A DNA stretch of 19,108 nt, taken from a virus. Lineage: Duplodnaviria; Heunggongvirae; Uroviricota; Caudoviricetes. This document shows, in pieces, positions 289-18,240 of this stretch (within the stretch, counting starts at the first letter, position 1; the number at the start of each line of letters is the position of its first letter). A model generated the notes under the pieces. That model was not told the origin of the DNA, ran no database searches, and worked only from the letters and a program-made list of their open reading frames with translations. The DNA lies in IMG/VR virus record IMGVR_UViG_2534681697_000017, positions 1 to 19,108 of that record. One strand, 5' to 3'. Made by a program: the position numbers and the translations under genes.

Positions 289-793
289 TAATCTCCAGTT
301 TTAGCCGCTCATCACTTTGTTTTCTGTCTGAGGGTTCATGCTGTACCCAGTTGTAATAACCGCTCCTGGATACACCAAATACCTGACACATCGCTTCAAT
401 GGGAAATTGTTGTCGCCATTGTTCGATTAACGCGTATTTTTCAGCGACTCCTGTGCAAAATACGCTGTTGCTTTTTTTAATATATCTCGCTCAAGGCGAG
501 CTTCATTTAACGCCTTACGCAGTTGCAGAATTTCAGATTCCAGTTCAGCCACCGTGCGGGAACCAGGAGTACCGAGCCCTTTTCTGGCGGCGGTAACCCA
601 TTGTCCTAAAGTGCCTTCAGGAAGGGATAATCGGGAAGCGCCTTCACTGATCGAAAGTTGATTTTCAAGAACCGTTCTGACAGCTTCGGCTTTGAACTCT
701 TTAGAGTAACGTTGGGTTTTTCTGCTCATTATTAGCTCCTTCTGATGCCATTCTATTTCAGGAAGGAGTGTCCGTTAAACTCAGGCTACCTCA
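289..793 (-). mobile_element. IS600 (IS3 family), truncated copy: left inverted repeat, orfA and the first ~45 codons of orfB
   Basis: The reverse complement of 289-793 matches 2416-2920 of the complete IS600 copy at every position I compared by eye (terminal TGAGGTAGCCTGAGTTTAACGG through CTGGAGATTA); identity stops at 288/289. Confidence 0.85.
427..729 (-). CDS. IS600 OrfA (IS3-family transposase HTH subunit)
   Basis: 100-aa ORF identical in protein sequence to the orfA at 2480-2782; recognised as IS600 OrfA from memory. Confidence 0.85.
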   Translation of the reverse strand: MSRKTQRYSKEFKAEAVRTVLENQLSISEGASRLSLPEGTLGQWVTAARKGLGTPGSRTVAELESEILQLRKALNEARLERDILKKATAYFAQESLKNTR

Positions 794-952
794 CTGCGCA
801 ATTGGCATTGTGCGAATTATTCATTCAGTAAAAAAGATTGAGCGTTTTTTCACTGAAGAATAACAGCACAAATAAAACACACGATTAAATAAGAAAACAT
901 GAAAACAATCCGCACTCGCGGAGGTATCCATATATATAAACACGAGGTTAGC

Positions 953-1216
953 ATGCTCAGGACAAATCAAAAAATACTGAAGGATGCATATTTTGACAGG
1001 GGGCGAGATCTCGCAAAGCTTTGCGCCGCACTAAAAGAAATCAGTCAGTATTTCACTGATATTGAAGATGATATAGCTAACAAAGGTGCCAGTATTACAT
1101 TAGCGAACAGAGCACATTTTATGGGCTTTAATGTTTTCACAGCCATAAGAACATTAAAAGAACAAAAAGAAGAAATAGAAAAGCTCAAATACAGACATAA
1201 AGCCAAGAGGGTGTAA
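953..1216 (+). CDS. Hypothetical protein, first gene of a coupled six-gene cassette
   Basis: ORF open from 899; preferred start is ATG 953, preceded by GAGG (944-947) at 5-nt spacing. The stop overlaps the next start (TAATG at 1214-1218). No recognisable family. Confidence 0.4.
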   Translation: MLRTNQKILKDAYFDRGRDLAKLCAALKEISQYFTDIEDDIANKGASITLANRAHFMGFNVFTAIRTLKEQKEEIEKLKYRHKAKRV

Positions 1217-1419
1217 TGGCAATTAAGCATTTTCCTGTCGTTCGTTTCACCTCCAGAGACCGCGAATATGAGGTCGACGAACGACTGATTACCACTATCG
1301 ACAAACATCGTTCGGAAAAGGATGCACACCACATCTACCTCACTGACGGCACTTACTTCTGCGCCACCAACGTGGCGCGGGTGAATCTTATCCGACAGGT
1401 ACAGGAGCCACGTAGATGA
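1216..1419 (+). CDS. Hypothetical protein (67 aa)
   Basis: ATG 1216 preceded by AGAGGG; stop overlaps the next start (ATGA at 1416-1419), indicating translational coupling. Confidence 0.45.
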   Translation: MAIKHFPVVRFTSRDREYEVDERLITTIDKHRSEKDAHHIYLTDGTYFCATNVARVNLIRQVQEPRR

Positions 1420-1682
1420 CCATTCTGGACTACATCGCTACTCATCCGGGTTGTAGCGGCGGAGAGATCGCCGCAGCACTGAATACCCCAACCACAGCCA
1501 TTAATGCTGAGTTACGCCAACTTTGGCGCGGCGGCTTGGTCATCAGAACAAACCGCAGCACAGGTGGTCGCGCTCGCAAAACAGGAGGCCAGGCTTCTTA
1601 CCACGTAAACCCGATGCCATTCGGGTGTGGCAATCCACTTACTCACATGTTTAACCAGCTGCTGAAGGAAGCCAGAGCATGA
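1416..1682 (+). CDS. Hypothetical protein, possible winged-helix DNA-binding protein (88 aa)
   Basis: ATG 1416 with AGGAG upstream. The N-terminal LDYIATHPGCSGGEIAAALN...LRQLWRGGLVIR pattern resembles a winged-helix fold; that assignment is an inference. Confidence 0.45.
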   Translation: MTILDYIATHPGCSGGEIAAALNTPTTAINAELRQLWRGGLVIRTNRSTGGRARKTGGQASYHVNPMPFGCGNPLTHMFNQLLKEARA

Positions 1683-1978
1683 GCGCCATCAACCACCAGA
1701 AGCTACGCGAACTGGCATTTTCCCTGCAACGAATGGCAACGCCTCAAAAATTACTGGCATTTCGCGCAATGCTCTCGTCGTCTGCTGTGCTGGCACTGCT
1801 GGATGACCTGGAGCACGCCAGAACCACGGCTCCTGCCATTCGCCTGACACTCCATCATGAAATCGCTGATTTCTGCGCAACATTGGAGGCGCCAGGCGAA
1901 CCGGAAACGCCGGAAGCAATACAGCAAGAACTGCTGCAACGCATTGACAAGGTTTTCGATTTTTTCCTTAACCAGTAA
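1679..1978 (+). CDS. Hypothetical protein (99 aa)
   Basis: ATG 1679 overlaps the upstream stop (ATGA); GAAGGAAG ribosome-binding site upstream. Confidence 0.45.
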   Translation: MSAINHQKLRELAFSLQRMATPQKLLAFRAMLSSSAVLALLDDLEHARTTAPAIRLTLHHEIADFCATLEAPGEPETPEAIQQELLQRIDKVFDFFLNQ

Positions 1979-1988
1979 GGGCCGCAAC

Positions 1989-2192
1989 ATGAACAACAAG
2001 ACATGGTTTCGCGCATACATGTGGGCGCTGGTATGCGTCCTTGTCTCTCTCATTCTGTATGTAGGGGTACTCCCCCGAATGATTTCATCAGACAGCTCCT
2101 TCCTGGTATTGCTGGGCATTTTCATTGCCATGCTGTACCCGGCAGGCGTTGTTCGCCTTTTCAGTAAGTACATCAAGGAAATCAAACAATGA
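1989..2192 (+). CDS. Small membrane protein, two predicted transmembrane helices (67 aa)
   Basis: ATG 1989 inside the longer listed ORF 1857-2192. Two hydrophobic stretches (WALVCVLVSLILYVGVL and FLVLLGIFIAMLYPAGVV). Stop overlaps the next start (ATGA at 2189-2192). Confidence 0.45.
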   Translation: MNNKTWFRAYMWALVCVLVSLILYVGVLPRMISSDSSFLVLLGIFIAMLYPAGVVRLFSKYIKEIKQ

Positions 2193-2428
2193 AGAAATTC
2201 AAACTCTTTCAGATTCTCCCGCTTTTTGCCGCCATCCTGCTGGTTGGTTGCGATCGCGTTGAGCCAGGTAATGTGGGCATCAAAGTCAACAAGCTGGGCG
2301 ATGACAAAGGCGTTGGCGAAGTGGTTGGCGTTGGCCGCTACTGGACTGGCTGGAATACCGAGGTTTACATCTTCCCGACCTTCAAACAAATGAAGACCTA
2401 CGATGAGCCGTTCAGTGAGGTAGCCTGA
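2189..2428 (+). pseudogene. Lipoprotein with SPFH/band-7-like N-terminus, truncated by IS600 insertion
   Basis: Signal peptide plus lipobox (LLVGC). GNVGIKVNKLGD...YWTGWNTEVYIFPTFKQ resembles the start of SPFH-domain proteins. The last four codons and the stop (2417-2428) are encoded by the IS600 left terminus, so the native 3' end is missing. Confidence 0.5.
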
Positions 2429-2479
2429 GTTTAACGGACACTCCTTCCTGAAATAGAATGGCATCAGAAGGAGCTAATA

Positions 2480-2782
2480 ATGAGCAGAAAAACCCAACGT
2501 TACTCTAAAGAGTTCAAAGCCGAAGCTGTCAGAACGGTTCTTGAAAATCAACTTTCGATCAGTGAAGGCGCTTCCCGATTATCCCTTCCTGAAGGCACTT
2601 TAGGACAATGGGTTACCGCCGCCAGAAAAGGGCTCGGTACTCCTGGTTCCCGCACGGTGGCTGAACTGGAATCTGAAATTCTGCAACTGCGTAAGGCGTT
2701 AAATGAAGCTCGCCTTGAGCGAGATATATTAAAAAAAGCAACAGCGTATTTTGCACAGGAGTCGCTGAAAAATACGCGTTAA
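2480..2782 (+). CDS. IS600 OrfA
   Basis: 100-aa ORF with GGAG upstream; sequence recognised as IS600 OrfA (MSRKTQRYSKEFKAEAVR...). Confidence 0.9.
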   Translation: MSRKTQRYSKEFKAEAVRTVLENQLSISEGASRLSLPEGTLGQWVTAARKGLGTPGSRTVAELESEILQLRKALNEARLERDILKKATAYFAQESLKNTR

Positions 2783-2817
2783 TCGAACAATGGCGACAAC
2801 AATTTCCCATTGAAGCG

Positions 2818-3636
2818 ATGTGTCAGGTATTTGGTGTATCCAGGAGCGGTTATTACAACTGGGTACAGCATGAACCCTCAGACAGAAAACAAAGTGATGA
2901 GCGGCTAAAACTGGAGATTAAGGTGGCACATATCCGCACTCGCGAAACATATGGAACCCGGCGGCTCCAGACGGAGCTGGCAGAGAATGGCATCATCGTT
3001 GGTCGTGACCGACTGGCACGTCTTCGTAAGGAGCTAAGGCTACGCTGTAAGCAGAAACGCAAGTTCAGAGCGACTACGAACCCGAACCACAATCTGCCAG
3101 TTGCGCCAAATCTGCTGAACCAGACGTTCGCTCCTACAGCACCAAATCAGGTCTGGGTGGCGGACCTGACGTATGTTGCCACACAGGAGGGATGGTTGTA
3201 CCTCGCTGGCATCAAAGATGTTTATACGTGCGAAATTGTCGGCTACGCCATGGGAGAGCGCATGACAAAAGAGCTGACAGGTAAAGCCCTGTTTATGGCG
3301 CTCAGGAGCCAGCGCCCACCTGCCGGGCTAATCCACCACTCTGATCGAGGTTCACAGTACTGCGCATACGATTACCGGGTCATACAGGAGCAGTTTGGTC
3401 TGAAAACATCAATGTCGCGTAAAGGTAACTGTTACGACAACGCTCCGATGGAAAGCTTCTGGGGAACGCTGAAAAATGAGAGCCTGAGCCACTATCGTTT
3501 TAATAACCGGGATGAAGCCATCTCAGTAATACGGGAATACATTGAGATTTTCTACAATCGTCAGCGTCGTCACTCTCGTCTGGGGAATATCTCCCCGGCA
3601 GCCTTCAGGGAAAAATATCATCAGATGGCTGCTTAA
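2818..3636 (+). CDS. IS600 OrfB (DDE integrase-type transposase); normally made as an OrfAB fusion by -1 frameshifting
   Basis: 272-aa ORF with an rve-type DDE core (HSDRGSQY...CYDNAPMESFWGTLK). Coordinates are from the first in-frame ATG; the frame is open upstream into the orfA overlap. Confidence 0.9.
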   Translation: MCQVFGVSRSGYYNWVQHEPSDRKQSDERLKLEIKVAHIRTRETYGTRRLQTELAENGIIVGRDRLARLRKELRLRCKQKRKFRATTNPNHNLPVAPNLLNQTFAPTAPNQVWVADLTYVATQEGWLYLAGIKDVYTCEIVGYAMGERMTKELTGKALFMALRSQRPPAGLIHHSDRGSQYCAYDYRVIQEQFGLKTSMSRKGNCYDNAPMESFWGTLKNESLSHYRFNNRDEAISVIREYIEIFYNRQRRHSRLGNISPAAFREKYHQMAA

Positions 3637-3660
3637 AAAAAGAACAAATGGTAGTGTCCG

Positions 3661-3879
3661 CTATTGCCAGTACACCTCAAAATCACGGGTATGTAGAATT
3701 TTCGATGGTTCACCTGAATAAACCTCATCCAGAGCTCTAACGTATTCGAGAGTTTCAGCGTTGGACAACCAGTGATCCAGACGCTTCCCGAAACGTTTTG
3801 CAATATCAGTGGCATTAATCCAGCCATCAGTATTGAAGCGGATAGGTTCGCCTTTGTAATTCAGTGGAACGATATTCAT
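3661..3879 (-). pseudogene. KilA-N-like phage protein (possible antirepressor N-terminal domain), 3'-truncated by IS600
   Basis: The N-terminus MNIVPLNYKGEPIRFNTDGWINATDIAKRFGK resembles KilA-N domains. The ORF runs into the IS600 right end (native sequence only 3680-3879). Confidence 0.45.
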
Positions 3880-4026
3880 AGCGTCTTACCTTTTAGAAAG
3901 ATGAGCCTGTTCGCACAGAAAAGCCGTCCCCGAGATGGTCGCCACCATATACGGCAGTTCTCAGGCTCAGCTTTCTGAAAAACTCGGGATTGTTACGCGC
4001 TGCGATGCGCGGTTTACTGCGGACAT

Positions 4027-4052
4027 ATAAAAGCCCCGCAAGTGCGAGGCTC
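4027..4052 (-). terminator. Putative intrinsic terminator downstream of Rz
   Basis: Minus-strand RNA AGCCUCGC-ACUU-GCGGGGCU forms an 8-bp stem (one G-U pair) followed by UUUUAUA, about 30 nt after the Rz stop. Confidence 0.4.
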
Positions 4053-4083
4053 ATTAAATGGACTTTGTGATTTGCAAAAAAAT

Positions 4084-4551
4084 TTATTTCAGGCACTGAG
4101 TCCTGATGTACTCCTGAAGCATTCTCAATGCTGTCTGGTCGCTGATGATTCCGTCCCGGATACCGAGAACGTTTCGTCCAGCAACTGGAGAGAGTTCGAC
4201 GGTGGCATCATTGCCCATGCCGGAGGCGCTGGAGGTTTCGGCTGAGGATGGCACAGGGCATTTTCCTTTGACGAGCACCCGACCACCATTATCAAGCTTG
4301 CGCCGAAGAGCATCATTTTCAGCTTTCGCATCAGCTAACTCCTTCGTGTATTTAGCATCGAGTGCATCAGCAGCACGCTGGCGCTGCTGCATGTCAGTAA
4401 TGGTTGCGTTCGCCAGCTTCAGTTCTCTTGCGTTTTTGTCGCGCTGCTCTTTGTAGGTAATGGCGTTATCACGGTAATGATTAACAGCCCATGACAGGCG
4501 GACGATGATGCAGATAACCAGAGCGGAGATAATCGCGGTGACTCTGCTCAT
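4084..4551 (-). CDS. Rz: Rz, inner-membrane spanin (i-spanin)
   Basis: N-terminal transmembrane segment then a charged coiled-coil region; sits immediately after the endolysin with the start overlapping its stop; contains an embedded lipoprotein ORF in the +1 frame. Start taken as ATG 4551 (the listed ORF begins at GTG 4563). Confidence 0.8.
4125..4331 (-). CDS. Rz1: Rz1, outer-membrane lipoprotein spanin (o-spanin), embedded in Rz
   Basis: [19 protein letters not shown] lipoprotein signal followed by a proline-rich segment ([11 protein letters not shown]), entirely inside Rz in another frame: the classic Rz/Rz1 arrangement. Confidence 0.7.
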
Positions 4552-5021
4552 TGCTGCCCCCACAAACAGACTTCACGCTCAATCTCACGACGGGTCATCA
4601 GCCCTTTCCATTGCTTACCGCCAGCATATGTCCAGCGACGTAGCTGGTCACATGCGCCTTTGATATCGCCCTGGTTTATTTTGCGAAGAAGCGTCGATGT
4701 TCTGAAATTGCCAGCGCCCACGTTGTAAACGAACGAGTAAAGAGCGCCGCGCGTTGTTTCCGGTATATCGACTTTGATGTACGGGTTAATTTGTCTGGCG
4801 ACAGTGGCAAGGTCTTTATTCAGGAGAGCTTTGCATTCTGCTTCGGTATACGTTTTACCAGGCATGATGTCTTTTCCGGTGTGTCCGTGACATACAGTCC
4901 ATACACCAATGATATCTTTGTATGGTATGTAGCTGACACCTTCCAGACCATCGTTACCACCTGGGCCAGTGATTAACACAGATGCTATAGCAAACAGCCC
5001 CGCCACCAATAGCAACTGCAA
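4548..5021 (-). CDS. R: Phage lysozyme (P21 R-like SAR endolysin); N-terminus disrupted by a frameshift, listed ORF starts at a TTG
   Basis: [15 protein letters not shown]...[15 protein letters not shown] matches P21-type endolysin as recalled. The expected ATG (5046-5044, overlapping the S stop as TAATG) opens a different frame that stops after 30 codons ([30 protein letters not shown]). See findings. Confidence 0.7.
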
Positions 5022-5045
5022 CAGCCTTGCGTAATGATGGCGACA

Positions 5046-5261
5046 TTATTCACCTCTCGCAGCCTTACGCTTATCTTCTCTTATTTTGAAATACAGATTC
5101 GTCAGATAAGTCAGAAGCCCCAGAAGCAGACTTCCCAGCACACCAATCGCAGCCCACTGTGATGGACTGACCTGATCCAACCACTGCAAAAACCAGTAGC
5201 CGGCACTGCCGGCGGAGGTGCCGTAGGCAATGCCCGTTGAAATTTTATCCATGGATTTCAT
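5046..5261 (-). CDS. S: Class II holin, P21 S-like pinholin with dual-start motif
   Basis: [71 protein letters not shown] is near-identical to S21 as I recall it; Met1-Lys-Ser-Met4 dual start; strong GGAGGTGAGG ribosome-binding site upstream. Confidence 0.85.
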
Positions 5262-5550
5262 AGCCTCACCTCCGCAAATAACGGATGGCGTAGTTCTTAT
5301 ATTGGGAAGGGAAAAAGAAGGCCGCAGCGTAACTGTCACTGATGAATTCAGGATAGCCAGTGGCTACGGCTCAGTTTTGGTTGTGCTGTTGCTGGGCGGC
5401 GATGACGCCTGTACGCATTTGGTGATCCGGTTCTGCTTCCGGCATTCGCTTAATTCAGCACAACGGAAAGAGCATTTATGACTCGCATCGCGGGAAAAAG
5501 CCCACGGTAGAGAGTCGAACTCTACAAATGCTCTTACCTGTTGTGAAAAC

Positions 5551-5580
5551 AAAAAAGCCCCGACGTTTCTGCCGAGGCTC
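5551..5580 (-). terminator. Intrinsic terminator upstream of the lysis cassette (tR'-like position)
   Basis: Minus-strand AGCCUCGGC-AGAAAC-GUCGGGGCU forms a 9-bp stem (two G-U pairs) followed by UUUUUU. Confidence 0.5.
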
Positions 5581-5812
5581 TTACCTAATCTAGCCAGTAT
5601 GTCGACCCTAAATATTATCGACGACCGGGGAAATCAGGATTTCAATTTCACTGCTCAGTTCGCTTTTGCTCCGAGCATATGCAAAAAATACCACTTTCAT
5701 TTCTCGGAAGCAACGCATTTACAAAATTATTTCAGTTCAGGCCGCTATTAATGGAAATTCTTTATCCAATTCTCGTTTCATTGCATAAAACATTTCTGAC
5801 TCCAGCACTTTC

Positions 5813-6263
5813 TCACACCACTCGCTTACGACAATACTGAATATCAGCACCTGTTATATAAGAAATAATCCTGGCTATATCTTGCGTGCAATTGCGATTG
5901 CAATATCGCTTAATAGCTACATCGCGGACAGGGCTTTCACGGTGAAACGTCTTAACCATGTCCGGCATCCCACTGAGCAGACGTGAGCGTTCCGCACGAG
6001 ATACATGGTAAATAGCGATCACGCTCCCTGATATAAGCATTTACTGCCTGCTGTGCCTGCTTCAGCCAGTAACTGCGGGGTTTTAAATCGCGGCGTCTTG
6101 CTTTCAGCTTGTCTGCCTGTTCTTTTGCTGAGGCTATAGCCTTTTCTTTTCTGACCAGTTCCAGTGCACACTGACCACAACAAACTTTCTGATATGAGCG
6201 GAACGGCACAAACTGATTGCCACACACTTTGCAGTTTTTGGGTTTACGCTGTTTCATTATCAC
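5813..6263 (-). pseudogene. ninG: ninG (rap)-like recombination protein gene, disrupted
   Basis: The first 103 codons (5952-6263) match lambda NinG as recalled ([43 protein letters not shown]) and then hit a stop; the downstream sequence continues only in another frame. Confidence 0.6.
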
Positions 6264-6264
6264 C

Positions 6265-6714
6265 TCAGAAAAACGACAGCAGGCGGTTATTCAGTTCAGG
6301 ATTGTTTGTACGCCCAAACACGTGTTTCAGCGCGGCATTAATCATTGCGTTGTAGCAACGTTCAAACTCATCCTGATCCATATTCGCGTAACTCAGGCTT
6401 TTTGCCCGATATCTCACCTCACCTCTTATGGTTGTGACCACATCATAGAACCCGGCAAGAATTGTCAGATTTTTACGAAACTCATCAAACTGCGTCGCTT
6501 CATCAGAGAATTCGTATCCGGCGTGTTCAGCACACCAGTACTGAAAGCAAAAATTAAGAAAAGCGAACATCTTCCGGTGAAAAGATGGATTACGGGTAAG
6601 ATTTGCTTCCAGCGTGTACAGCTCACCGTTTTTAAATTTTGCCAGTCGGGGTAAATCGCGTTCATACGCCGGTATAAATACGCCATTAGCAGCCTTGATC
6701 ATCTCCAGCTCCAT
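6265..6714 (-). CDS. Conserved phage protein of unknown function (149 aa)
   Basis: Intact ORF whose ATG overlaps the upstream stop (ATGA at 6711-6714); lies between the primase gene and ninG. Family assignment not secure; it does not resemble Q. Confidence 0.6.
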
Positions 6715-7673
6715 CAGGCAGCCTCCGCTTTGAATTTGCGCGTCAACACATGTTCACGGGCCTCACACCCCTGAATGAGCATGTCGTTAAAATCCGGCAA
6801 GTCAGGCCAGCGAATACTGACCTTCTCCACGTCATTACGACTCATGAGATTCTTATGCCCACATTTAAAGGCAGCCGCCAGACCTGCACCATGCTCGTCA
6901 TTGTCAGCAAAGATAATCAGGTGATTAACGCCAGGTGGAGCAATAAACTTCTCCATAAAGCCAGAATTCATTGTTGACCATACGTTGCAGCGAAATATCT
7001 GGCGACATGACAGCGCCGTCTCAATCCCCTCTGCAATTCCCAGAGTTGATGACACCGGATACAGGCGTATCGCTACAGATTTGGCATATTCCAGATAAGA
7101 TTGCTCCTGTAATGCCAGCGCTTTTTTGGCAGCCTCCACACCCGCTTTGCGATCGCCATCCAGCAAGGTACGGTGCAGGTAACACAGCATGCCTTTATCA
7201 TCTGTTACGATTGAATAAATCGCCTGGTACTCCCGTCCATTAGCAATCTGCCGATTACAAAAACGAACGGATTCTGCCGGTAACTGGAGGATCCCCCTGT
7301 TTTTCAGATATGCCTCTCCTGAAGTTCCGCGCAAACATGGCAATCTGGCAAATTTAGCTGTAACCCTCTCCCGGTTTCTGGTTGTGTCAGTCACAACAGG
7401 TCTTGCGTGCTCTTTTTTCCAAGTATTACCAATCAGTCGATCGATTTCATCGCACAGAGTCACCCAAGGCTTACCCGTTGCCAGTTGCAACAACTGCATC
7501 CCATCGCCATGACCACAGACACATATCCACGATCCTGTTCCGCAACGGAATTTACCTTTAGCGCCGCAAATGGGGCAGGTGCCCTTGTAATGTTTACCGC
7601 CAGTGACAGGAGGCATACCGTAGTATTCAAAAATCCGCTCCCAGTGCCCCTTTGCTGCCTCCTTAGTTTGCAT
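6714..7673 (-). CDS. Zinc-ribbon plus Toprim domain protein (phage DNA primase-like)
   Basis: N-terminal Cys cluster (CPICGAKGKFRC...WICVCGHGD) and a Toprim-like acidic motif (LIIFADNDEHGAG); GGAGG ribosome-binding site; coupled to the helicase gene upstream. Confidence 0.75.
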   Translation of the reverse strand: MQTKEAAKGHWERIFEYYGMPPVTGGKHYKGTCPICGAKGKFRCGTGSWICVCGHGDGMQLLQLATGKPWVTLCDEIDRLIGNTWKKEHARPVVTDTTRNRERVTAKFARLPCLRGTSGEAYLKNRGILQLPAESVRFCNRQIANGREYQAIYSIVTDDKGMLCYLHRTLLDGDRKAGVEAAKKALALQEQSYLEYAKSVAIRLYPVSSTLGIAEGIETALSCRQIFRCNVWSTMNSGFMEKFIAPPGVNHLIIFADNDEHGAGLAAAFKCGHKNLMSRNDVEKVSIRWPDLPDFNDMLIQGCEAREHVLTRKFKAEAA

Positions 7674-9183
7674 GCTGGCCTCCGGTCATGGCTTTCTTGC
7701 GCCCTTTGGCATAGGCAATGATCTTTGACTTGATGAAATTGTGCACTTCAACCGAGGTTTGCAGCGGCGCGTTACTGAAGCCTTTAGGCCACACCCCGAA
7801 CTTCTCTTTGTAGGTATGAGCGCACCATCCGTCACTCAGTGGCTTACCTGTCGCGTTGCGGTAATTCTGATAGCCCTTGATCTCACTCCACCACCGCTGT
7901 TTTTCCTCGCGGCTGTATTCGCGTTTCCCTTTGTTTACGCGAGAGAGTTTTCGATCGCGGTCTGTTGCCACATCATCGCCACCAAGAGGACGAAACCCAC
8001 ATTTGGGACACATGTGTACACCAGCAGGCTTCATGAAGTGGCATTTGGGGCATTCTCTGGGAAGTTTTTCAGCTTTAACCTCGCCACCGCCAGCAGACGC
8101 TTTCATTCCGTCATTTTTGCCCGGCAGTTCGTCATACTCGATATCCTCGGGGAAACCCAGCCGATGAACCGTGCCAGAATGGTCGAAAATCAACGCACGT
8201 TGTTTACCTGGGGCTGTACGTAACGCTCTACCTATGCACTGCAACCAACGGATTTCTGATTTTGTCGGACGGGCATAGATCAGGCAGCGAACATCGCTGT
8301 CAAATCCCGCAACCAGTACGCCGACGTTGACAATTATTTTGGTCACGCCCTCTTCAAAACGGCGAATGATGTCCTGTCGTTCATCATGGAGGGTATCTGC
8401 CATCATCACCTCTGCGCCAATACCGGCCTGTAAAAACTCACGGGTAACAAAATTCGCATGCGCAACATTCACACAGAAGCAGATCGTCGGCAAATCCTCA
8501 CCATTCTCAAGCCAGTTGCGAACGATATCGCCAACCAGATCCGAACTCCCCATGATGGATGCGAGCTGCTCCTCGTTGTAATCCCGTCCAAATACGGTGT
8601 TACTGGTTTTTACGCCAGCCAGATCAGGCATTGAGGGGGCAAAAAACTCATAATCGCTCAGATCACCACGCTGAATAAGTTCACGAATCGTTGTAGGCTT
8701 GATCAGGCATTCGTAGTACTTCCCCATCCAGGCTGCGAACGGGGTACCGGAAAGTCCAAGAACCCTGATGTCTCTGTCCCGGATAACCTCAAGTAACGCA
8801 CGACGCTTCATGTGTGCTTCATCGATGATCAGCAGATCGATGTTGTCAGGAAACTCACGACGGATCAGCGTGTCGGCACTGGCAATCTGAATCAGTCGTG
8901 ACGGGTCATAGTTAGGGTGATCACGCCATACAAAACTGATTTCTTCCCACGGCAAACCGTATTCGGTGAAACGTTCCGCTGTCTGGTTCAGCAGGATGGT
9001 GTACGGACAGACAAACATCACTCGCATACCACGTTCAACCATTCCGGCGGTGACGAATGCTGCAAGACCAGTTTTGCCAGAGCCAGTGGGTGCATACATC
9101 AGGTACGTGCGATGCTGTTTCCACTGGTGCCGCAGCTGGTTTAAACCGCGCTCCTGAGCAAAGTTTGGGATTATTTTCAGCAT
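7663..9183 (-). CDS. Superfamily-2 DEAD/DEAH-box helicase with C-terminal zinc ribbon (phage replicative helicase)
   Basis: Walker A (APTGSGKT), DEAH box (LLIIDEAHM), C-terminal CPKCHFMKP...CPKCGF. 506 aa. Confidence 0.8.
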   Translation of the reverse strand: MLKIIPNFAQERGLNQLRHQWKQHRTYLMYAPTGSGKTGLAAFVTAGMVERGMRVMFVCPYTILLNQTAERFTEYGLPWEEISFVWRDHPNYDPSRLIQIASADTLIRREFPDNIDLLIIDEAHMKRRALLEVIRDRDIRVLGLSGTPFAAWMGKYYECLIKPTTIRELIQRGDLSDYEFFAPSMPDLAGVKTSNTVFGRDYNEEQLASIMGSSDLVGDIVRNWLENGEDLPTICFCVNVAHANFVTREFLQAGIGAEVMMADTLHDERQDIIRRFEEGVTKIIVNVGVLVAGFDSDVRCLIYARPTKSEIRWLQCIGRALRTAPGKQRALIFDHSGTVHRLGFPEDIEYDELPGKNDGMKASAGGGEVKAEKLPRECPKCHFMKPAGVHMCPKCGFRPLGGDDVATDRDRKLSRVNKGKREYSREEKQRWWSEIKGYQNYRNATGKPLSDGWCAHTYKEKFGVWPKGFSNAPLQTSVEVHNFIKSKIIAYAKGRKKAMTGGQHAN

Positions 9184-9563
9184 GACGCCCCCTTGCTACG
9201 TGATTTACCCGTTGCCGGGATCACGTCGATCTCATCGCTAACGTATTGATCCGGATTACGTGAACAGCGCAGAAGCACGATACCAGGAATGCCGTATAGC
9301 TTGAGTCTGCGCAGTTTCAGTATTGAACGTGCCCGTGGTGACGCTCTGTCCACCTCGATCGCGCACCGTTCACCAGATGGGGCAACGACCATGATATCGA
9401 CGAATCCGCGCTTACCGTTGCCCATATCAACCAGATAATTACGTTCGATCGCCAGTCCGGCATCACGCAATTTGGCAGCCAGCACATAATCAAACGTGAC
9501 CTTGTCTTTTCCGGTGTAGAATTTGTTTCCGAGCAGGCTGATAACCACATGTTTGATGAACAT
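9177..9563 (-). CDS. Hypothetical protein, possibly nuclease-fold (VRR-NUC/PD-(D/E)xK-like), coupled to the helicase
   Basis: 128-aa ORF whose stop overlaps the helicase start. The GFVDIMVV...AIEVD segment loosely resembles a PD-(D/E)xK core; weak inference. Confidence 0.45.
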   Translation of the reverse strand: MFIKHVVISLLGNKFYTGKDKVTFDYVLAAKLRDAGLAIERNYLVDMGNGKRGFVDIMVVAPSGERCAIEVDRASPRARSILKLRRLKLYGIPGIVLLRCSRNPDQYVSDEIDVIPATGKSRSKGASC

Positions 9564-9785
9564 GGTACTATTTCCACCGCAATAGTTGGCATAATAATAA
9601 TTTCGCCAGAAACCATCTCACCCTATACAGTGATCTACCTAACCTATGGAGCTGCCTTCCTCTGGTAGTGCCCTTACAGGCACGGATGTTACAGATCTGC
9701 CCCCTTACCCCCTTCTTAGTAAAATTTCAAGCGCAATGATTTCATGAGAAATCATTTCACAAAAAAATAATCACCTTGATGAGAT

Positions 9786-10067
9786 CTATTCCTTCCGTAT
9801 CGCTACTGGCGAAAGCATCCAGCCACGGCTGGCTCTCGCGTACTTCTGGACATACACCCGTAACCGGGTGTTGGCACTCCGTCTTGCCCTGTTGCCCTTC
9901 CTGAACGATACAGGCTCCTTGTCCCACTCTTCCTGGTACACTCTCGCGTACTCTGCTGCAATTTTTACCCTGGTGGTCGGGTCTAGCTGTAACAATTGCT
10001 CCTGTATCCAGTCCCGATCAGCATCACAGTACTGATCGGGCATAACCGTTTTGATTTGCCTGTTCAC
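9786..10067 (-). CDS. Hypothetical protein (93 aa), first gene after cro-like
   Basis: GTG start at 10067 preceded by GGAGGTG at 5-nt spacing; an alternative ATG lies at 10043. No recognisable domain. Confidence 0.5.
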   Translation of the reverse strand: MNRQIKTVMPDQYCDADRDWIQEQLLQLDPTTRVKIAAEYARVYQEEWDKEPVSFRKGNRARRSANTRLRVYVQKYARASRGWMLSPVAIRKE

Positions 10068-10089
10068 TCACACCTCCGATGGAGGGTTA

Positions 10090-10329
10090 TCAGGCTGTTT
10101 GCCTTACATGAAGCGGAATACCATCTTCCATGTTTAGGTAGTCATGCGGGTTTAGTTCATGGGGAGTTACATTCCAGTCTGTAGCTTTTGCCCATTCAAT
10201 GGCTTTCCGCCCCTGAGGCATGTATCTCCCTGTAATAACCCCACTGACAAATCCCTGAGAAACTCCAACAATCGCCGCAAAATCGGCTTGTCTGATAGAG
10301 CTTTGTCTCAAGTACTCGTCAAGAGTCAT
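10090..10329 (-). CDS. Cro-like HTH regulator (Cro/YdaS-type)
   Basis: Transcribed divergently from cI; helix-turn-helix SIRQADFAAIVGVSQGFVSGVITGR; GGGAGG ribosome-binding site 7 nt upstream of the ATG. Confidence 0.65.
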   Translation of the reverse strand: MTLDEYLRQSSIRQADFAAIVGVSQGFVSGVITGRYMPQGRKAIEWAKATDWNVTPHELNPHDYLNMEDGIPLHVRQTA

Positions 10330-10434
10330 AGAGATCCTCCCATTTCAATTTTCCGATATTAGCTTACCTGATTTAAATGTCAATAGGCTAGCTATTTGAT
10401 AAATATTTGTGTTGCTAATAAAATTGGAGGCACT
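10330..10434. promoter_or_regulatory. cI/cro divergent intergenic control region (oR-like, pR/pRM-like)
   Basis: 105-bp AT-rich spacer between divergent repressor genes; contains an imperfect dyad TAGCTTACC...GGCTAGCTA. Operators are not individually resolved. Confidence 0.5.
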
Positions 10435-11154
10435 ATGACGAAGAAAATTACAATTACTGACAAAGACATCCAGAACGCTGAACGACTGCGCAAAATCTGG
10501 GATGAAAAACGGAAACAGCTATCCCTAAGCCAGGAAAAAGCCGCAGATATCCTCGGCTTCAAAACGCAGGGGGCTGTTAGTCAGTTATTGAACGCAAAAA
10601 TTGCGTTAAATACTGAAAATACCCTTAAGTTTGCGGCTTTATTACAGGTTCCTGCGGAAGAAATTAATCCAGATCTGAGTGATTTGTTACGCAGTATTCG
10701 TACCCACACACCGGGAAACAGGCGTAACCTGTTCGAGAAATATTACGAATATCCGTTACTCTCCTGCGTACAGGCTGGAGCTTTCTCAATGGATGATTTT
10801 TCGTACACCGCAAAGGATGCGATTAAGTGGATCTCCACCACCACAAAAGCCAGTGACAGGTCGTTCTGGCTGGAGGTCAAGGGGCATTCAATGACCGCGC
10901 CGCAGGGTGGTAAACCCAGTTTCCCCGAAGGGATGCTGATACTCGTTGACCCTGAGCGGGAGATTGAGGATGGCGATTTTTGCGTGGCCCGAATGAATGG
11001 CGATGAATTCACCTTCAAACGATTCATTCGTGAGAGCGGTAAAGCGTACCTGGAGCCACTCAACCCACGATTCGACATGATTGAGTGTAACGAAAACTGC
11101 CAGTTTGTCGGAAAGGTCATAAAGTCGCAGTGGAATGATGAGACTTTTGATTGA
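10435..11154 (+). CDS. cI: Lambda-family CI repressor (HTH plus S24 LexA-like autopeptidase domain)
   Basis: C-terminal half ([32 protein letters not shown]...[11 protein letters not shown]...[14 protein letters not shown]) closely resembles the lambda CI C-terminal domain as recalled, including an Ala-Gly site (VQAGAF). N-terminal HTH is divergent. Start at ATG 10435 with GGAGG upstream. Confidence 0.9.
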
Positions 11155-11275
11155 ACTCACAGGATGATATCAATAACCTTGCAGGGAGGCTATTTTATTT
11201 CCTTTTTCAGCGAAAAATCTCCGAGAACCCTCGCCCAATGCGGGCGGGGAGCAGTCGCAATCAAGTGAGCCATAA

Positions 11276-11446
11276 ATGAACAAAGACAAATCCTTGACAC
11301 AACAAGTGGAAGAAATACTTAGCAAGCAAAAAGTTAGCGAGCAAGGAAAAATGATTCAATCATTAAAGAACATGGGCTTGATCAACAAGCCTGTTTTTAC
11401 TTTGGCTTATGGACCAGATATTACAACCTGCCAAATGCACCAATAA
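11276..11446 (+). CDS. Small ORF (56 aa) downstream of cI, unknown function
   Basis: ATG 11276 to TAA 11444-11446, immediately followed by a strong terminator; weak ribosome-binding site; below the size cutoff of the supplied ORF track. Confidence 0.3.
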   Translation: MNKDKSLTQQVEEILSKQKVSEQGKMIQSLKNMGLINKPVFTLAYGPDITTCQMHQ

Positions 11447-11478
11447 CAAAACCCGGCCTTGGTGCCGGGTTTTGTTTG
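11447..11478. terminator. Bidirectional intrinsic terminator between the cI and hicAB transcription units
   Basis: AAAACCCGGC-CTTGGT-GCCGGGTTTT perfect 10-bp stem, flanked by T-runs on both strands. Confidence 0.7.
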
Positions 11479-11560
11479 CCTCCTGCTCACCCCACCATTT
11501 ACCAGTGCGCCGTAAATTCCCCATTCTTCGGCGGTGAGGATGTCAAAGACGAAGGGAACA

Positions 11561-11905
11561 TTAAGCCCCTGTGTGATGGTTGACTTCTTTTTCCAGCGCC
11601 TTATTAACAAAGGCGTTCAGTGATAAATCTTCTTCCATCGCCATTTCAGCGACCCGACGATGCAGTTCTGGATCAAGTCTGACGTTAAACACACCTTTAA
11701 ACGGGGTATCAGGCTCCTTTCCATCCTCCACACAAGACTGTAAATACAGCTCAACCGATGTCTTAAACTCCTGTTCCAGTTCAGCTAATGTAGAAGCCTC
11801 ATAAGTTACCAGGTCTCGAATAAACGCCAGTTTTCCGTACAGGATATTATTTTCAAAATCTGGTTCTACTGTACCTAAATATCCTTTATATTTTAGATGA
11901 TTCAT
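11561..11905 (-). CDS. hicB: HicB-family antitoxin (HicB fold plus C-terminal ribbon-helix-helix)
   Basis: ATG overlaps the hicA stop (ATGA at 11902-11905); C-terminal ELHRRVAEMAMEEDLSLNAFVNKALEKEV is RHH-like. Confidence 0.7.
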   Translation of the reverse strand: MNHLKYKGYLGTVEPDFENNILYGKLAFIRDLVTYEASTLAELEQEFKTSVELYLQSCVEDGKEPDTPFKGVFNVRLDPELHRRVAEMAMEEDLSLNAFVNKALEKEVNHHTGA

Positions 11906-12156
11906 AATACCCCAGCCTCTTTCAGATTCTGTTTAATCGCTTTCAGCGTTCCACCTTTAATATAACTTTCTGGATGTGGGCGATGCATTAATATGGTGTG
12001 GTTGATTTCAGCATTGAAAAACCGCACTCTTGAGCCCTGCATTTCCTTTTTGACATATCCCAGAGAGGAAAACAAAACGACCAACTCATCCCATTCAAAC
12101 GTTTTTTTACTGTTTAAAAACTTTTCCAGTAGCTTATCTGCTTTCCCCATACCCAC
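11902..12156 (-). CDS. hicA: HicA-family toxin (mRNA interferase)
   Basis: GSRVRF...HRPHP...IKGGTLKAIKQNLKEAG matches the HicA consensus. The listed start is GTG 12156; an alternative ATG lies at 12150. Confidence 0.7.
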   Translation of the reverse strand: MGMGKADKLLEKFLNSKKTFEWDELVVLFSSLGYVKKEMQGSRVRFFNAEINHTILMHRPHPESYIKGGTLKAIKQNLKEAGVL

Positions 12157-12305
12157 ATAATCTCATCTTCGCTACATTGCAACTAATTATAGTTACAGGC
12201 GATGTTTTTGTCAAAAGCCACCAAGCCCGCTGGGTTCTCTTTGACTGTTCACTGCTTTTCTTAGTGTTATCAGGGGGTTCCCTCACACCAAATCTAACAC
12301 AGAGT

Positions 12306-12332
12306 AACCGGCCTCAGCGCCGGTTTTTCTTT
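12306..12332 (+). terminator. Plus-strand intrinsic terminator upstream of the putative early-left promoter
   Basis: AACCGGC-CTCAGC-GCCGGTT stem followed by TTTTTCTTT; no U-run on the opposite strand. Confidence 0.55.
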
Positions 12333-12443
12333 GCGCATCCTCCATAACTCACCACCTGCATTATCCTCGCTTATATTTTTTACATAAATAAATTAATCTA
12401 AAAATCAATCACATAGATTAAAATTAAATTATCAGTCTTACTA

Positions 12444-12473
12444 TTAACTGCGATCAGTTGCGCTTATTATATT
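12444..12473 (+). promoter_or_regulatory. Candidate early-left (pL-like) promoter
   Basis: TTAACT, an 18-nt spacer, then TATATT, within a very AT-rich block; read by eye only. Confidence 0.3.
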
Positions 12474-12495
12474 TTACCCAAGCCAGAAACATCGC

Positions 12496-12565
12496 GCCCT
12501 GACACAGGGCTACATAAATCAGTCGTACGGCGCGACTTAACCCGCCGCAAAATGCTCTTTAACAA
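12496..12565 (+). promoter_or_regulatory. Antitermination-like element: boxB-like hairpin (12496-12510) plus rrn-type boxA (12553-12565)
   Basis: GCCCTGACACAGGGC has the same stem as lambda nut boxB (GCCCU...AGGGC) with a different loop; TGCTCTTTAACAA equals the E. coli rrn boxA consensus as recalled. Confidence 0.4.
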
Positions 12566-12854
12566 TCTGGAGCTTTACAGCGTCAATGACCTGTTTAGAC
12601 CCCTACACGTAAACGTGCTGTATCATCGGGTGCGATCCGGTCGATGAGAGAGTATCCCCGCGCGAGAGCGAGAACGGCGTGAGAACGGGCAACACTGGCA
12701 GGAAGTTGGCGCTGACCAATACAGGGAATGTTTTGGGGTGCAGGCGGCACCGCCAAAGCATTTCCGAGAAAGGACGATATTGACTGCGTGTGATGTCGGG
12801 GCTATATTTGGCGAACACCTCATAAAACGGGTGCCGGGATTAGCACCCCGAAAG

Positions 12855-12893
12855 TTACTCGAGCGCATAACCGCGCTGAAGCGGTTTTTTTAT
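12855..12893 (+). terminator. Putative intrinsic terminator in the leader just upstream of the Rha-like gene
   Basis: CGCATAA-CCGCGCTGAAGCGG-TTTTTTTATGCG: inner hairpin (ACCGC/GCGGT) plus T7 run, enclosed by an outer CGCATAA/TTATGCG stem. Confidence 0.4.
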
Positions 12894-13057
12894 GCGTAAT
12901 GCACAGCCACATTCAAATTATGGTGAGGCGTGCGGGGCAGCCGCAAGGCTGGCCGGGTTCTCGAGTGACCGGTAGTGCTAACCCTGTGCGTCTCACCACC
13001 CATGAGATTAGCACCTCTGGTGGTGAGTTAATTAACTTATCACTTGAGGATGTCATT

Positions 13058-13435
13058 ATGGCTACTACCCTTTCTCACCCTGACGTAACCATCGAAAATG
13101 GTCGCGCCGTCACTACTTCTATTTCGATTGCTGAGTTTTTTGGCAAGCAGCATCACCATGTTGTTCAGAAAATAGAATCCCTCGAATGCTCTGAGCAATT
13201 CTTAACCCGCAACTTTTCGCGGGTTAAATTCGAACACCGAGGCAATACCTATAACGCCTACCAAATCACCAAAAACGGCTTCGTTTTTCTGGTGATGGGC
13301 TTCACCGGCAAAAAAGCAGCTGCATTCAAGGAAGCCTACATTGCTGAATTCGATCGCATGGAAAAACAACTATGGGAACAGAAACAACTGGCCCTGTCTT
13401 CTCCTGCGATGAATATCAATTTCCCTTTATCGTAG
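13058..13435 (+). CDS. Rha-family phage regulatory protein (125 aa)
   Basis: VTTSISIAEFFGKQHHHVVQKIESL resembles the Phage_pRha motif. Start at ATG 13058 with GAGGA 7 nt upstream; the longer ORF from 12899 is rejected. Confidence 0.6.
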   Translation: MATTLSHPDVTIENGRAVTTSISIAEFFGKQHHHVVQKIESLECSEQFLTRNFSRVKFEHRGNTYNAYQITKNGFVFLVMGFTGKKAAAFKEAYIAEFDRMEKQLWEQKQLALSSPAMNINFPLS

Positions 13436-13462
13436 TTTTCAGAGCATCACCCCTATGCCACG

Positions 13463-13696
13463 ATGAACTATGTTGATAGAAATACATTGCAGCTTGATAC
13501 CTCCGTCTTATTCGACATGCCAAGCCCTGCAATGCGCATATTTAATGAATTACGTCGTAACGGCTATAACGTCGATGCGGCTGTCGCCGAATTTAACGCC
13601 TTCAAGCATCTGACGGAAGAAATGCGCCGTAAATTGCTGGATATTTCCCGCACATCGGAAAAGTCTTCCCGCTTTGGTTTCAACGTTAATCTTTAA
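13463..13696 (+). CDS. Hypothetical protein (77 aa)
   Basis: ORF in the early-left operon; weak ribosome-binding site. Confidence 0.45.
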   Translation: MNYVDRNTLQLDTSVLFDMPSPAMRIFNELRRNGYNVDAAVAEFNAFKHLTEEMRRKLLDISRTSEKSSRFGFNVNL

Positions 13697-13766
13697 TTAA
13701 CCCCATCCCCGATCACATATCGGGGATTAAATTAAATATCTGGATTAATTAACCGGAGGATTTGTC

Positions 13767-13979
13767 ATGCTCAAACCTCACTACGGAACCGCATTAGTTT
13801 CTCGCGAGGACGTTAAACCCGGTACAGCAATTCTTTACAACGGGCGTTATTACATGGCGTCAGCTAACGTTAATAATGCACTTTACGCACATTCACTGAT
13901 TGAAAAAATCCGCATTATTTCAGATGCAATCGAAGTTTACCTGAACCATAAAGGCCAACCGTTAATCTCACCAGCCTGA
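13767..13979 (+). CDS. Hypothetical protein (70 aa)
   Basis: ATG preceded by CCGGAGGA. Confidence 0.55.
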   Translation: MLKPHYGTALVSREDVKPGTAILYNGRYYMASANVNNALYAHSLIEKIRIISDAIEVYLNHKGQPLISPA

Positions 13980-13990
13980 AAGGAAATATC

Positions 13991-14272
13991 ATGCTCAATC
14001 AAAAAATTAATATCAATGTAAAAAACGTCATAACGCCAGCAGAAACGATAATGGGAGAAGTTTTTATGGATGATAAAATCATCGCCTATTTTGTCGTCCT
14101 GCCTGATGAGGCTATTTCTGTTATTGATACGGAAGGCAATGTTATGTTTATCGCGGAACATCCAGAAGACATCGCATTACAGGCCGCTGCATATTTCTTC
14201 GCTAAAGAGCAGGAGGAAGAATGTAACTGCCCTGTCTGTCAGCTTTCCCGACAAATTAATTTAATGCATTAA
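13991..14272 (+). CDS. Hypothetical protein (93 aa), acidic with C-terminal CxxC
   Basis: ATG preceded by AAAGGAAA. Confidence 0.55.
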   Translation: MLNQKININVKNVITPAETIMGEVFMDDKIIAYFVVLPDEAISVIDTEGNVMFIAEHPEDIALQAAAYFFAKEQEEECNCPVCQLSRQINLMH

Positions 14273-14292
14273 CCGGAATCAGGAGTTCCGCC

Positions 14293-14574
14293 ATGAACGC
14301 ATACCTCACCTGCGACCGCATAGAGGAGCGTCGCTGGGTTAATCAGCATATTCAGGATGAAAAGGATAAATGGATTGATGATCGGGCGCAGGAGCTTATC
14401 AGCATGTTCCCCGATAAACCATTGCTTATGAGCAGCCTTTTTTTACCCAAAGAAGCCCAACTGGCACTCACTGGCGAAAAAGCTGAAGAGGCGTACAACG
14501 ATTATATCTCAGCGATCGCCTATGCTCGGGCGGAAGAAGAATGGGAGAGAAAATTCTCCCCCTGTCCTTTCTGA
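14293..14574 (+). CDS. Hypothetical protein (93 aa)
   Basis: ATG preceded by CAGGAG. Confidence 0.55.
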   Translation: MNAYLTCDRIEERRWVNQHIQDEKDKWIDDRAQELISMFPDKPLLMSSLFLPKEAQLALTGEKAEEAYNDYISAIAYARAEEEWERKFSPCPF

Positions 14575-14591
14575 TTTTCAGGACCAAAAAA

Positions 14592-15541
14592 ATGTTCGAT
14601 ATCGTTGAATTTGTTAAGCAGCAGGAGCGCTTTTTCTGCGAGGCATTAACTGAACCGACGCTGACATGGGCGAAGGAAAGTCAGTTTGCAATTCAGCAAT
14701 TCCAGAAAAATGCCTTTCTGGCTGACACAGCACGGGCAAATCTGCCCAGCGCACAGAACGCTATCATCAATGTTGCCGCCATCGGCATAACCCTGAACCC
14801 GGCCAGCAAGCTGGCGTATCTGGTCCCACGAAAAAAGGCTGTATGCCTGGATATCAGTTATATGGGGCTTCTGCATCTGGCACAGGTCACAGGAGCCATT
14901 CAGTGGGGGCAATGCAAACTTGTTTACGAGAAGGACATTTACGAGTCCAACGGTATTGACTGCGCCCCCACGCACAAATACAACCCATTCGTAGACAGGG
15001 GCGCACGCATTGGCGGTTATTGTGTCGTAAAAACATCCGAAGGCGACTATCTGACCGAAGAGATGAGCAACAGGGAAATCGAGGTCATCAGGGCGTGCAG
15101 CAAAGCCGGAAATAACGGAGGAAGTAGCCCGTGGGATAGTTTCCCCGATGAAATGGCCAGAAAAGCCATTGTAAGCGCGCCAGCAAATACTGGCCCCGTC
15201 GCGATCGCCTGGATACAGCTATCGACTACCTGAACACTCAGGCCGGTGAAGGTATCATCCTGAATGCTGATCACATCCCTGAGCGTGACGTCACTCCCGC
15301 ATCAGATGAGATTATCAATGAGATCACTCAGGCAATCACCGAAATTAACAAGACATGGGATGACCTGCTTCCCTTATGTTCCAAAACATTCCGTCGCACG
15401 ATTGCATCACATGAATATCTCAGTCAGGAAGAAGCTGTCAAAACGCTTGATTTTGTCAAAAAGAAAGCTGCCAGAAACAAGGCCACGGCGGAAGCGAAAA
15501 TTCACGCCACCACGGAAAATAGCAGCGAGGCCGTGTCATGA
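14592..15541 (+). pseudogene. recT: RecT-family single-strand annealing protein, interrupted by a -1 frameshift near 15172
   Basis: The N-terminal 213 codons (14592-15233) are RecT-like (AIGITLNPASKLAYLVPRKK...). The expected C-terminal continuation (KRASKYWPRRDRLDTAIDYLN...SEAVS) is read in the -1 frame from about 15173 to the TGA at 15539-15541, which overlaps the exonuclease start. Confidence 0.7.

Positions 15542-17357: not shown

Positions 17358-18240
<883 letters not shown>

Follow-up and report, generated by a model that had tools for sequence, protein, structure and literature searches.

An Eru1-type helicase-primase module in a lambdoid prophage and a conserved G-rich element as its candidate origin

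The DNA analyzed here is a stretch of 19,108 nucleotides (nt) from a Caudoviricetes virus (IMG/VR record IMGVR_UViG_2534681697_000017, positions 1 to 19,108), which we call the window. It contains a helicase-primase module that lies between an open reading frame (ORF) at the cII position and the nin genes, which is the place of O and P in phage lambda. By its sequence this module is the already published Eru1 replication unit of lambdoid prophages of the Shiga toxin (Stx) type, and is not new. On balance we think it probable that a conserved G-rich element at 9596-9757 is the origin of this Stx-phage-like prophage, that the helicase and primase initiate replication there, and that a 128-aa protein encoded next to the element acts as an accessory. 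An earlier reading of the DNA, made without database searches and referred to below as the sequence-only reading, had picked out ORFs of 128, 506 and 319 aa as a replication module in place of lambda O and P, and all three are confirmed, on the minus strand, at the positions that it gave.

Identity of the module

The module and its immediate surroundings are arranged as follows.

9786-10067, minus strand: 93-aa protein at the cII position, PHROG 852, no Pfam match
9564-9785, minus strand: non-coding candidate origin of 222 bp, indicated by an alignment of 30 loci, G-motif statistics and exclusion between the G-rich element and genes in the same position
9177-9563, minus strand: 128-aa ORF, an optional protein of PD-(D/E)xK fold, PHROG 1347
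7663-9183, minus strand: SF2 DEAH-box helicase of 506 aa, orthologue of Eru1A, with a zinc ribbon and a Trp-rich C-terminal domain
6714-7673, minus strand: zinc-ribbon/DUF7146/Toprim_3 primase of 319 aa, orthologue of Eru1B, of the DnaG/P4-alpha type
6265-6714, minus strand: DUF1367/NinB-like protein of 149 aa ('Eru1C'; Pfam DUF1367, 1.3e-23; PHROG 319 'NinB/Orf', 9.3e-62)

The helicase is 97% identical to gp30 of phage TL-2011c (YP_007001450), both being of the 506-aa type, and the primase encoded directly downstream of it is 85% identical to gp31. It is these identities to Eru1A and Eru1B of TL-2011c that place the module in Eru1. The other features by which the unit is recognized are likewise present, as a DUF1367 gene follows the primase and lambda O and P are lacking; none of the ORFs scanned from cI to the lysis genes against Pfam and PHROG matched an O- or P-type protein (Phage_rep_O, P). 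Nucleotide identity of ~92% extends to 98 phage records, mostly of Stx2a-converting Oslovirus phages, and to prophages in 153 of 5426 complete Escherichia coli genomes.

Eru1 was named by Llarena et al. in 2021, who defined eru1A (a helicase of 506 aa), eru1B (a Toprim protein) and eru1C (DUF1367) (PMC8044961), and Eru typing is found also in PMC8951638. The Stx2 phages of the 2006 Norwegian O103:H25 and the 2011 European O104:H4 outbreaks have this unit, and in them it has been associated with unstable lysogeny and a high output of toxin (PMC8044961). According to the literature the Eru1 phages are without homologues of N, CII and CIII. There is no discussion of gp29, of the 93-aa ORF or of an origin in the Eru typing papers (PMC8044961, PMC8951638), and our search for mechanistic literature on Eru1 found nothing beyond these two. 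The sequence-only reading missed the published identity (PMC8044961), and as an interpretation of the whole it is supported in part.

In TL-2011c, P13374 and phi3538/95 the gene order is the same, running cI, cro, (93-aa ORF), small ORF, helicase, primase, DUF1367, NinG. The window differs from these reference phages in several respects. The helicase gene is 90-100% identical to theirs in nucleotide sequence, whereas in the primase gene identity drops to 70-80% over the N-terminal two thirds, between 6958 and 7645. With flanks at 90-100%, this segment is best read as a recombinant, diverged allele, making the module a mosaic. The small ORF is an allele of the E. coli E2855 prophage (100% identical in amino acids), with 37% identity to gp29 of TL-2011c and the Lyz12581Vzw allele. 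Moreover the window is without Q, transfer RNAs (tRNAs) and stx, and its NinG gene is truncated.

A conserved unit and a variable slot

Related loci, 84 in number, come from Escherichia, Salmonella, Klebsiella, Yersinia, Proteus, Morganella, Providencia, Xenorhabdus, Photorhabdus, Serratia, Pantoea, Citrobacter, Enterobacter, Gilliamella and others. The helicase and primase genes are neighbours in 81 of them, and the 93-aa ORF is found upstream of the helicase in 82, across the Enterobacterales. The PD-(D/E)xK ORF is present in 17 of 82 loci and absent from 65. DUF1367 occurs in only 2 of the 84, and immediately after the primase in 1. Judged by this gene order, the conserved unit of the Enterobacterales comprises the 93-aa protein, a slot between it and the helicase, the helicase and the primase, and the DUF1367 gene 'eru1C' is best classed as a gene of the nin region, outside the conserved replication core. 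The sequence-only reading had proposed that a trio of the 128-aa protein, helicase and primase replaces O and P. A helicase-primase pair does occupy that place, with no O or P protein, but the trio is not the conserved unit, as it includes an optional gene and omits the 93-aa ORF.

The family alignment of the 93-aa protein has 12 invariant residues. We found no relative in Pfam, NCBIfam or the PDB, and the family profile gave matches at chance level only. In the RefSeq record of TL-2011c (NC_019442) a 97-aa homologue with a GTG start (1044-1337) is left unannotated, and this may explain why the literature has nothing at the cII position of the Eru1 phages. Vibrio phage 1.233.B, too, has a homologue ahead of this helicase-primase pair. 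There (4975-5100, 5105-7992) a 133-aa RepL/HTH_36 protein is encoded directly upstream of the pair, and its gene is preceded by clear ACGACAGAACCTGTCG repeats and AT-rich DNA. The helicase of this phage is mis-annotated as a 'TMhelix containing protein'.

What, then, occupies the slot? There are three options: a G-rich non-coding element alone; the G-rich element together with the PD-(D/E)xK gene; or a gene encoding a RepL-like winged-helix initiator or another protein. The loci are distributed thus.

Slot without a gene: G-element present in 46, absent in 1
Slot with the PD-(D/E)xK gene: G-element present in 13, absent in 4
Slot with a gene for a RepL-like winged-helix initiator: G-element present in 1 (a weak motif), absent in 6
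Slot with a gene for a 275-312-aa protein of no assigned function: G-element present in 2, absent in 9

Where the slot gene is RepL-like (the RepL domains were confirmed) or encodes the 275-312-aa protein, the G-element is missing from 15 of 18 loci. The pattern suggests that the element and initiator-type genes are largely alternatives at one position, and it is chiefly on this mutual exclusion that we base the view of the G-element as the origin in variants without an initiator gene. The 275-312-aa family, seen in L026, L028, L041, L043, L046, L052, L053 and L058, has no Pfam match, and its N-terminus reads MRMIIK..KHR..WKPARAV...

The intergenic element

Alignment of 30 loci reveals a composite layout common to loci across genera. 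An AT-rich segment with an inverted repeat is followed by a core of the form G5-6-NNN-G5-6 with a GATC, a spacer of variable length, a GATC box and a repeat half-site. In the window its parts, together with a hairpin found by a fold scan, are these.

9735-9757, minus strand: left inverted repeat, a class A site, AAATGATTTC-tcat-GAAATCATT, within the AT-rich patch
9700-9712, minus strand: G-rich core GGGGGTAAGGGGG (G5-TAA-G5), the coding strand being the non-template strand
9694-9697, minus strand: GATC site right after the G-core
9668-9683, minus strand: 6-bp hairpin GTGCCTGTAAGGGCAC with a GNRA loop, also written GTGCC(T)GTAAGGGCAC
9621-9648, minus strand: conserved GATC box CATAGGTTAGGTAGATCACTGTATAGGG (CATAGGTTARGTAGATC in the cross-locus layout), near-identical in E. 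coli, Salmonella and Yersinia
9596-9604, minus strand: right half-site GAAATTATT, class A like the left inverted repeat

The AT-rich patch extends from 9710 to 9799 and has 28-30% GC. The G-core occurs once in the window. Over 82 loci (670 kb) the motif G5+N1-4G5+ occurs 60 times on the same strand, with 58 of these inside the interval from the 93-aa ORF to the helicase, and once on the opposite strand. We found no paper on the G-motif string in a literature search. The sequence GTAGATC follows the G-motif at ~70 nt in 35 of 83 gaps, and in other loci copies of the right-hand, class-specific site lie ~110-120 nt past the motif. The flanking repeats, set at fixed distances from the G-core, are of at least three sequence classes, namely the GAAATNATTTC type, the GTACTAG..CTAGTAC type and the TAGACGTCTA type (L012, L024, L077 and others).

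From the layout, the motif statistics and the exclusion of slot genes we infer that 9564-9785 is the best candidate for the origin. Upstream of the 93-aa ORF lie the early control genes.

10090-10329, minus strand: HTH cro-like gene (Pfam)
10356-10383, minus strand: pR-like promoter, TTGACA-16-TATAAT-like (consensus scan, 10/12 matches)
10396-11154, plus strand: divergent S24 repressor gene (Pfam)

The promoter is situated between the repressor and cro-like genes. Early rightward transcription from pR would traverse cro, the 93-aa ORF, the G-rich element, the optional 128-aa gene, the helicase and the primase, in that order.

The small protein has a nuclease fold

The 128-aa protein matches no Pfam family even at E = 10, nor any entry of NCBIfam, nor any protein of the PDB by phmmer. 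An exhaustive HMMER search found 74 relatives. AlphaFold2 gave a mean predicted local distance difference test score (pLDDT) of 36.7 with the single sequence vs 88.3 with an alignment of 29 sequences from a profile search. The latter model has an alpha-alpha-beta-beta-beta-alpha-beta core, and since this includes the alpha-beta-beta-beta-alpha-beta arrangement we assign the modelled protein to the PD-(D/E)xK fold. The faint PD-(D/E)xK signature noticed in the sequence-only reading is borne out by the model, while its more specific suggestion of a VRR-NUC domain failed, the protein giving no match to the family profile of PF08774.

Comparison of the modelled fold finds homing and restriction enzymes, and a profile search of the family against the PDB gave weak hints of AF1548 and XisH only. 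Residues E70, D72, P76, R77, S80 and K83 are invariant in the family and D56 is at least 90% conserved. The predicted active site comprises D56, E70 and D72, in a BamHI-like D...E-x-D arrangement, with the invariant K83 on the next helix.

The domain also occurs as an internal or middle domain of phage proteins of 250-490 aa. Its fusion partners are Phage_rep_O (N-terminal, 1.3e-32; P0018), Phg_2220_C (P0037), DnaT (P0025) and HNH (P0061), and in an unrelated contig (L007) the small protein is encoded directly upstream of an O-like initiator. The fusions with Phage_rep_O, DnaT and Phg_2220_C and the adjacency in L007 tie the small protein to replication initiation.

The gene might instead be a mobile or defence nuclease that settled at a permissive site ahead of the helicase gene and plays no part in replication; a free-standing homing endonuclease and an exclusion nuclease are examples. 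Its patchy occurrence and its allelic cassettes are what this would predict, and the enzymes matched by the fold point the same way, as does the HNH fusion. The slot of one locus (L044) holds a NUMOD4/HNH homing endonuclease, so that the small gene could likewise be a mobile nuclease, and distant homologues are found in contexts unrelated to replication (L003, L004). Yet the recurrent fusion or adjacency to O-like, DnaT-like and Phg_2220_C replication domains is not explained in this way, nor is the position immediately 5' of the helicase that the small gene keeps in at least eight genera. We therefore regard a mobile nuclease as possible, with a serious but minority claim, and a role as an origin accessory as somewhat more likely than that of a selfish nuclease.

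Other readings of the element and of the small gene

Could the intergenic element be a site of transcriptional or RNA-level control rather than an origin? As a terminator or antiterminator site, a nut- or put-like site or a pause, it would govern the entry of transcription from pR into the module. The element lies within the pR transcript, and a control site there might suit phages that have no N, CII or CIII; the strict strand bias of the G-motif is consistent with an RNA-level or transcription-coupled function, and the hairpin with its GNRA loop could be a part of such a site. However, RNAalifold finds 0 conserved pairs over the 30 loci, the RNA fold of 9564-9785 is not significant (z = -1.16), and Rfam has no match in this region. 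The hairpin is kept in the E2855 prophage (with C for T) but not in Lyz12581Vzw, and may be boxB-like or may have arisen by chance. In loci with a RepL-like initiator gene the element is largely replaced, as is more natural for an origin than for a terminator. We consider a control site improbable.

It is very unlikely that the 128-aa protein, helicase and primase form an obligate trio equal to lambda O and P in which the small protein is the origin-specific initiator. The two alleles of the small gene, at 37% identity, sit in modules otherwise ~99% identical, as would be expected for a specificity determinant, the domain is fused elsewhere to O-like origin-binding domains, and a true initiator-type gene fills the same slot in the Vibrio phage. 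The three genes also overlap stop-to-start in the window. The 128-aa ORF and the helicase share ATGCTGA (7 nt), the helicase and the primase ATGCAAACTAA (11 nt, with GGAGG a few nt upstream), and the primase and DUF1367 TGATG. Against this, the small ORF is missing from the 65 loci noted above, which have the same helicase, primase and cis element, and both alleles adjoin identical class A repeats and G-core. Nor is the coupling maintained outside E. coli, as the small ORF and the helicase are separated by 10-34 nt in Salmonella, Yersinia and Klebsiella, and by >200 nt in Xenorhabdus. The stop-start overlaps described in the sequence-only reading are real, but translational coupling between the small ORF and the helicase is limited to the E. 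coli alleles.

Helicase and primase

The assignments of the two larger proteins, made at first from motifs in the sequence, stand. The 506-aa protein has Pfam matches to ResIII (4e-15), Helicase_C (1.5e-10) and DEAD (3.1e-10), and belongs to PHROG 16 'DNA helicase' (2.6e-108). With GSGKT at 34, DEAH at 121, SGTP at 145 and QCIGRALR at 315 it has motifs I, II, III and VI of an SF2 helicase in addition to the ResIII and Helicase_C domains. These are followed by a zinc ribbon, CPKC-x10-CPKC (aa 378-395, with CPKC at 378 and 392), of which each of the four cysteines is kept in at least 97% of 61 homologues. The Trp-rich C-terminal domain is without a match. The nearest characterized relative is E. 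coli RadD (PDB 6jde, 1.4e-15). The score against NCBIfam NF053632 is 87.2 bits vs a cut-off of 720, and for this reason the protein is called RadD-like only and not an orthologue of RadD. Matches to PriA are weak and confined to motif I.

The 319-aa protein matches Zn_Ribbon_Prim (9.1e-8), DUF7146 (1.7e-16) and Toprim_3 (1.5e-11) in Pfam, and PHROG 510 'DNA primase' (5.1e-127). Its zinc ribbon has CPIC at 33 and CVC at 51, and the Toprim residues E215, D257 and D259 are conserved in 59 of 61. By its zinc ribbon, Toprim glutamate and DxD we classify it as a primase of the DnaG/P4-alpha type, and primer synthesis is predicted.

That the pair is a module for recombination and repair or for replication restart, with replication begun by host factors or another phage gene, seems highly doubtful: the closest characterized relative is indeed a repair helicase, SF2 enzymes are not the ring-shaped replicative helicases, and recombination genes are nearby (NinB-like, NinG, and RecT at 14541-15233), but the ORFs scanned with Pfam and PHROG from cI to the lysis genes include no second replication initiator and no helicase loader, the P4-alpha/DnaG-type primase has intact catalytic residues, and variant loci combine the pair with RepL-type initiators that have iterons.

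Surroundings in the window

Downstream of the primase the DUF1367/NinB-like gene is followed by NinG (5813-6263), cut to 103 aa vs ~187 aa in TL-2011c. Homology to the Eru1 phages ends at 5958, beyond which there is a DLP12-like lysis region; this junction is found in 0 of 5426 complete E. coli genomes. No Q antiterminator, tRNA or stx gene is present in this prophage. Given the missing Q, tRNA and stx, the prophage is probably defective.

Just past the Rz lysis gene there is an insertion sequence of the IS3 family (2480-3636, plus strand) with orfA and an orfB that has the rve integrase core. A HicA toxin/HicB antitoxin pair (11561-12156, minus strand) separates the repressor gene from the leftward early genes. 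The leftward early region (12899-17174, plus strand) encodes a Rha/Ash-domain protein (12899-13435), RecT (14541-15233) and an Ead/Ea22 + DUF551 protein (16227-17174). No N-like antiterminator came up in this region.

Discussion

The reading that we favour, and hold to be probable, is that the Eru1-type module begins replication at the G-rich element. The origin would be the segment 9596-9757, composed of the inverted repeat, the non-template G5-TAA-G5, the two GATC sites and the repeat half-site. There the helicase would open or remodel the DNA and the primase would prime, with the replisome completed by host polymerase and probably host DnaB. With G-runs on the non-template strand a short way past a strong early promoter, the trigger is most likely a transcription-dependent opening in the form of an R-loop. 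This opened structure would be recognized by the zinc-ribbon SF2 helicase, much as PriA recognizes R-loops and D-loops. We picture the 128-aa protein as a dispensable accessory, most likely a Mg-dependent nuclease or a structure-specific DNA binder acting at the origin or close to it.

A number of observations weigh against this reading. The classical replicative helicases do not include SF2 enzymes, and the closest relative, RadD, works in repair. In the small protein D-ExD stands in place of D-ExK. The sequence-only reading had placed a possible origin in the same intergenic region and had proposed a check there for iterons or AT-rich unwinding elements; the region remains the best candidate and has the AT-rich patch and the conserved G-rich element, but no iterons or other family of direct repeats are found in 9564-9785, and no DnaA boxes (TTATNCACA) at one mismatch or fewer between 6862 and 11600. 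The only repeats in the intergenic region are one inverted repeat and one half-site of GAAATNATT, which falls short of an iteron-type origin. The repeat classes show no clean co-variation with the 93-aa protein, the helicase domains, the primase domains or Cro, identities between classes reaching 0.81-1.0 and Cro types being mixed, and so they track none of the proteins of the module. As a stand-alone marker the 15-mer of the G-motif had to be rejected. An exact scan for GGGGGGTAAGGGGGG in viral contigs gave 120 matches, most of them unrelated and only ~24 beside this module, as chance predicts. The locus counts on which we rely are not phylogenetically independent. Lastly, the eru1 genes were given a role in replication from map position alone (PMC8044961).

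A more far-reaching scheme can be drawn, which we rate as unlikely in its entirety. The Eru1 phages, including the Stx2 phages of the O104:H4 and O103:H25 outbreaks, might start replication without a sequence-specific initiator. Transcription from pR over G5-6-NNN-G5-6 would form an R-loop or a G-quadruplex on the non-template strand, which the helicase would read in the way of PriA and the primase would use. Firing would be tuned by the 93-aa protein, by the flanking inverted repeats and by Dam methylation at both GATC sites. In those phages that have it, the small protein would process the structure, for example by a nick that leads to a switch to rolling-circle replication.

We have here a known module correctly read rather than a discovery, and the novelty is low. 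What the analysis adds is the fold of the unannotated gp29-type protein, the 93-aa fourth gene, the placing of eru1C among the nin genes and a conserved, delimited candidate origin. Its remaining interest lies in an unreported candidate origin, an overlooked 93-aa gene and an accessory of nuclease fold, in phages of medical importance.

How does the module compare with known systems? It occupies the same map place as lambda O/P and ori-lambda, downstream of pR, cro and cII. The firing of the lambda origin depends on transcription from pR, and like ori-lambda the candidate element of the window lies within the pR transcript. Unlike lambda, the window has no Phage_rep_O or P homologue and no iterons inside a gene, and while lambda P hijacks DnaB, the Eru1 module brings its own helicase and primase.

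Among nucleases, BamHI, OkrAI and BstYI, NucS, AF1548, XisH and Bax1 have only 13-19% identity to the 128-aa protein, which is far smaller, is a stand-alone domain with no Pfam family, and is a predicted nuclease. The helicase shares with RadD (6jde) and PriA an SF2 core followed by a Cys4 zinc ribbon. PriA recognizes R-loops and D-loops and starts primosome assembly, and we use it as a working analogy for the helicase, the matches being weak and limited to motif I. With the primase domains of P4 alpha and T7 gp4 the primase has in common Zn_Ribbon_Prim and a Toprim domain with the conserved E and DxD, but in the window it is a separate polypeptide paired with an SF2 helicase, not fused to an SF3 or SF4 helicase. 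R-loop or G-rich primed origins are represented by ColE1 RNA II and the mitochondrial conserved sequence block II (CSB II). These resemble the candidate origin in having two non-template runs of G5-6 after a promoter and beside an AT-rich segment; the analogy is functional only, with no sequence homology.

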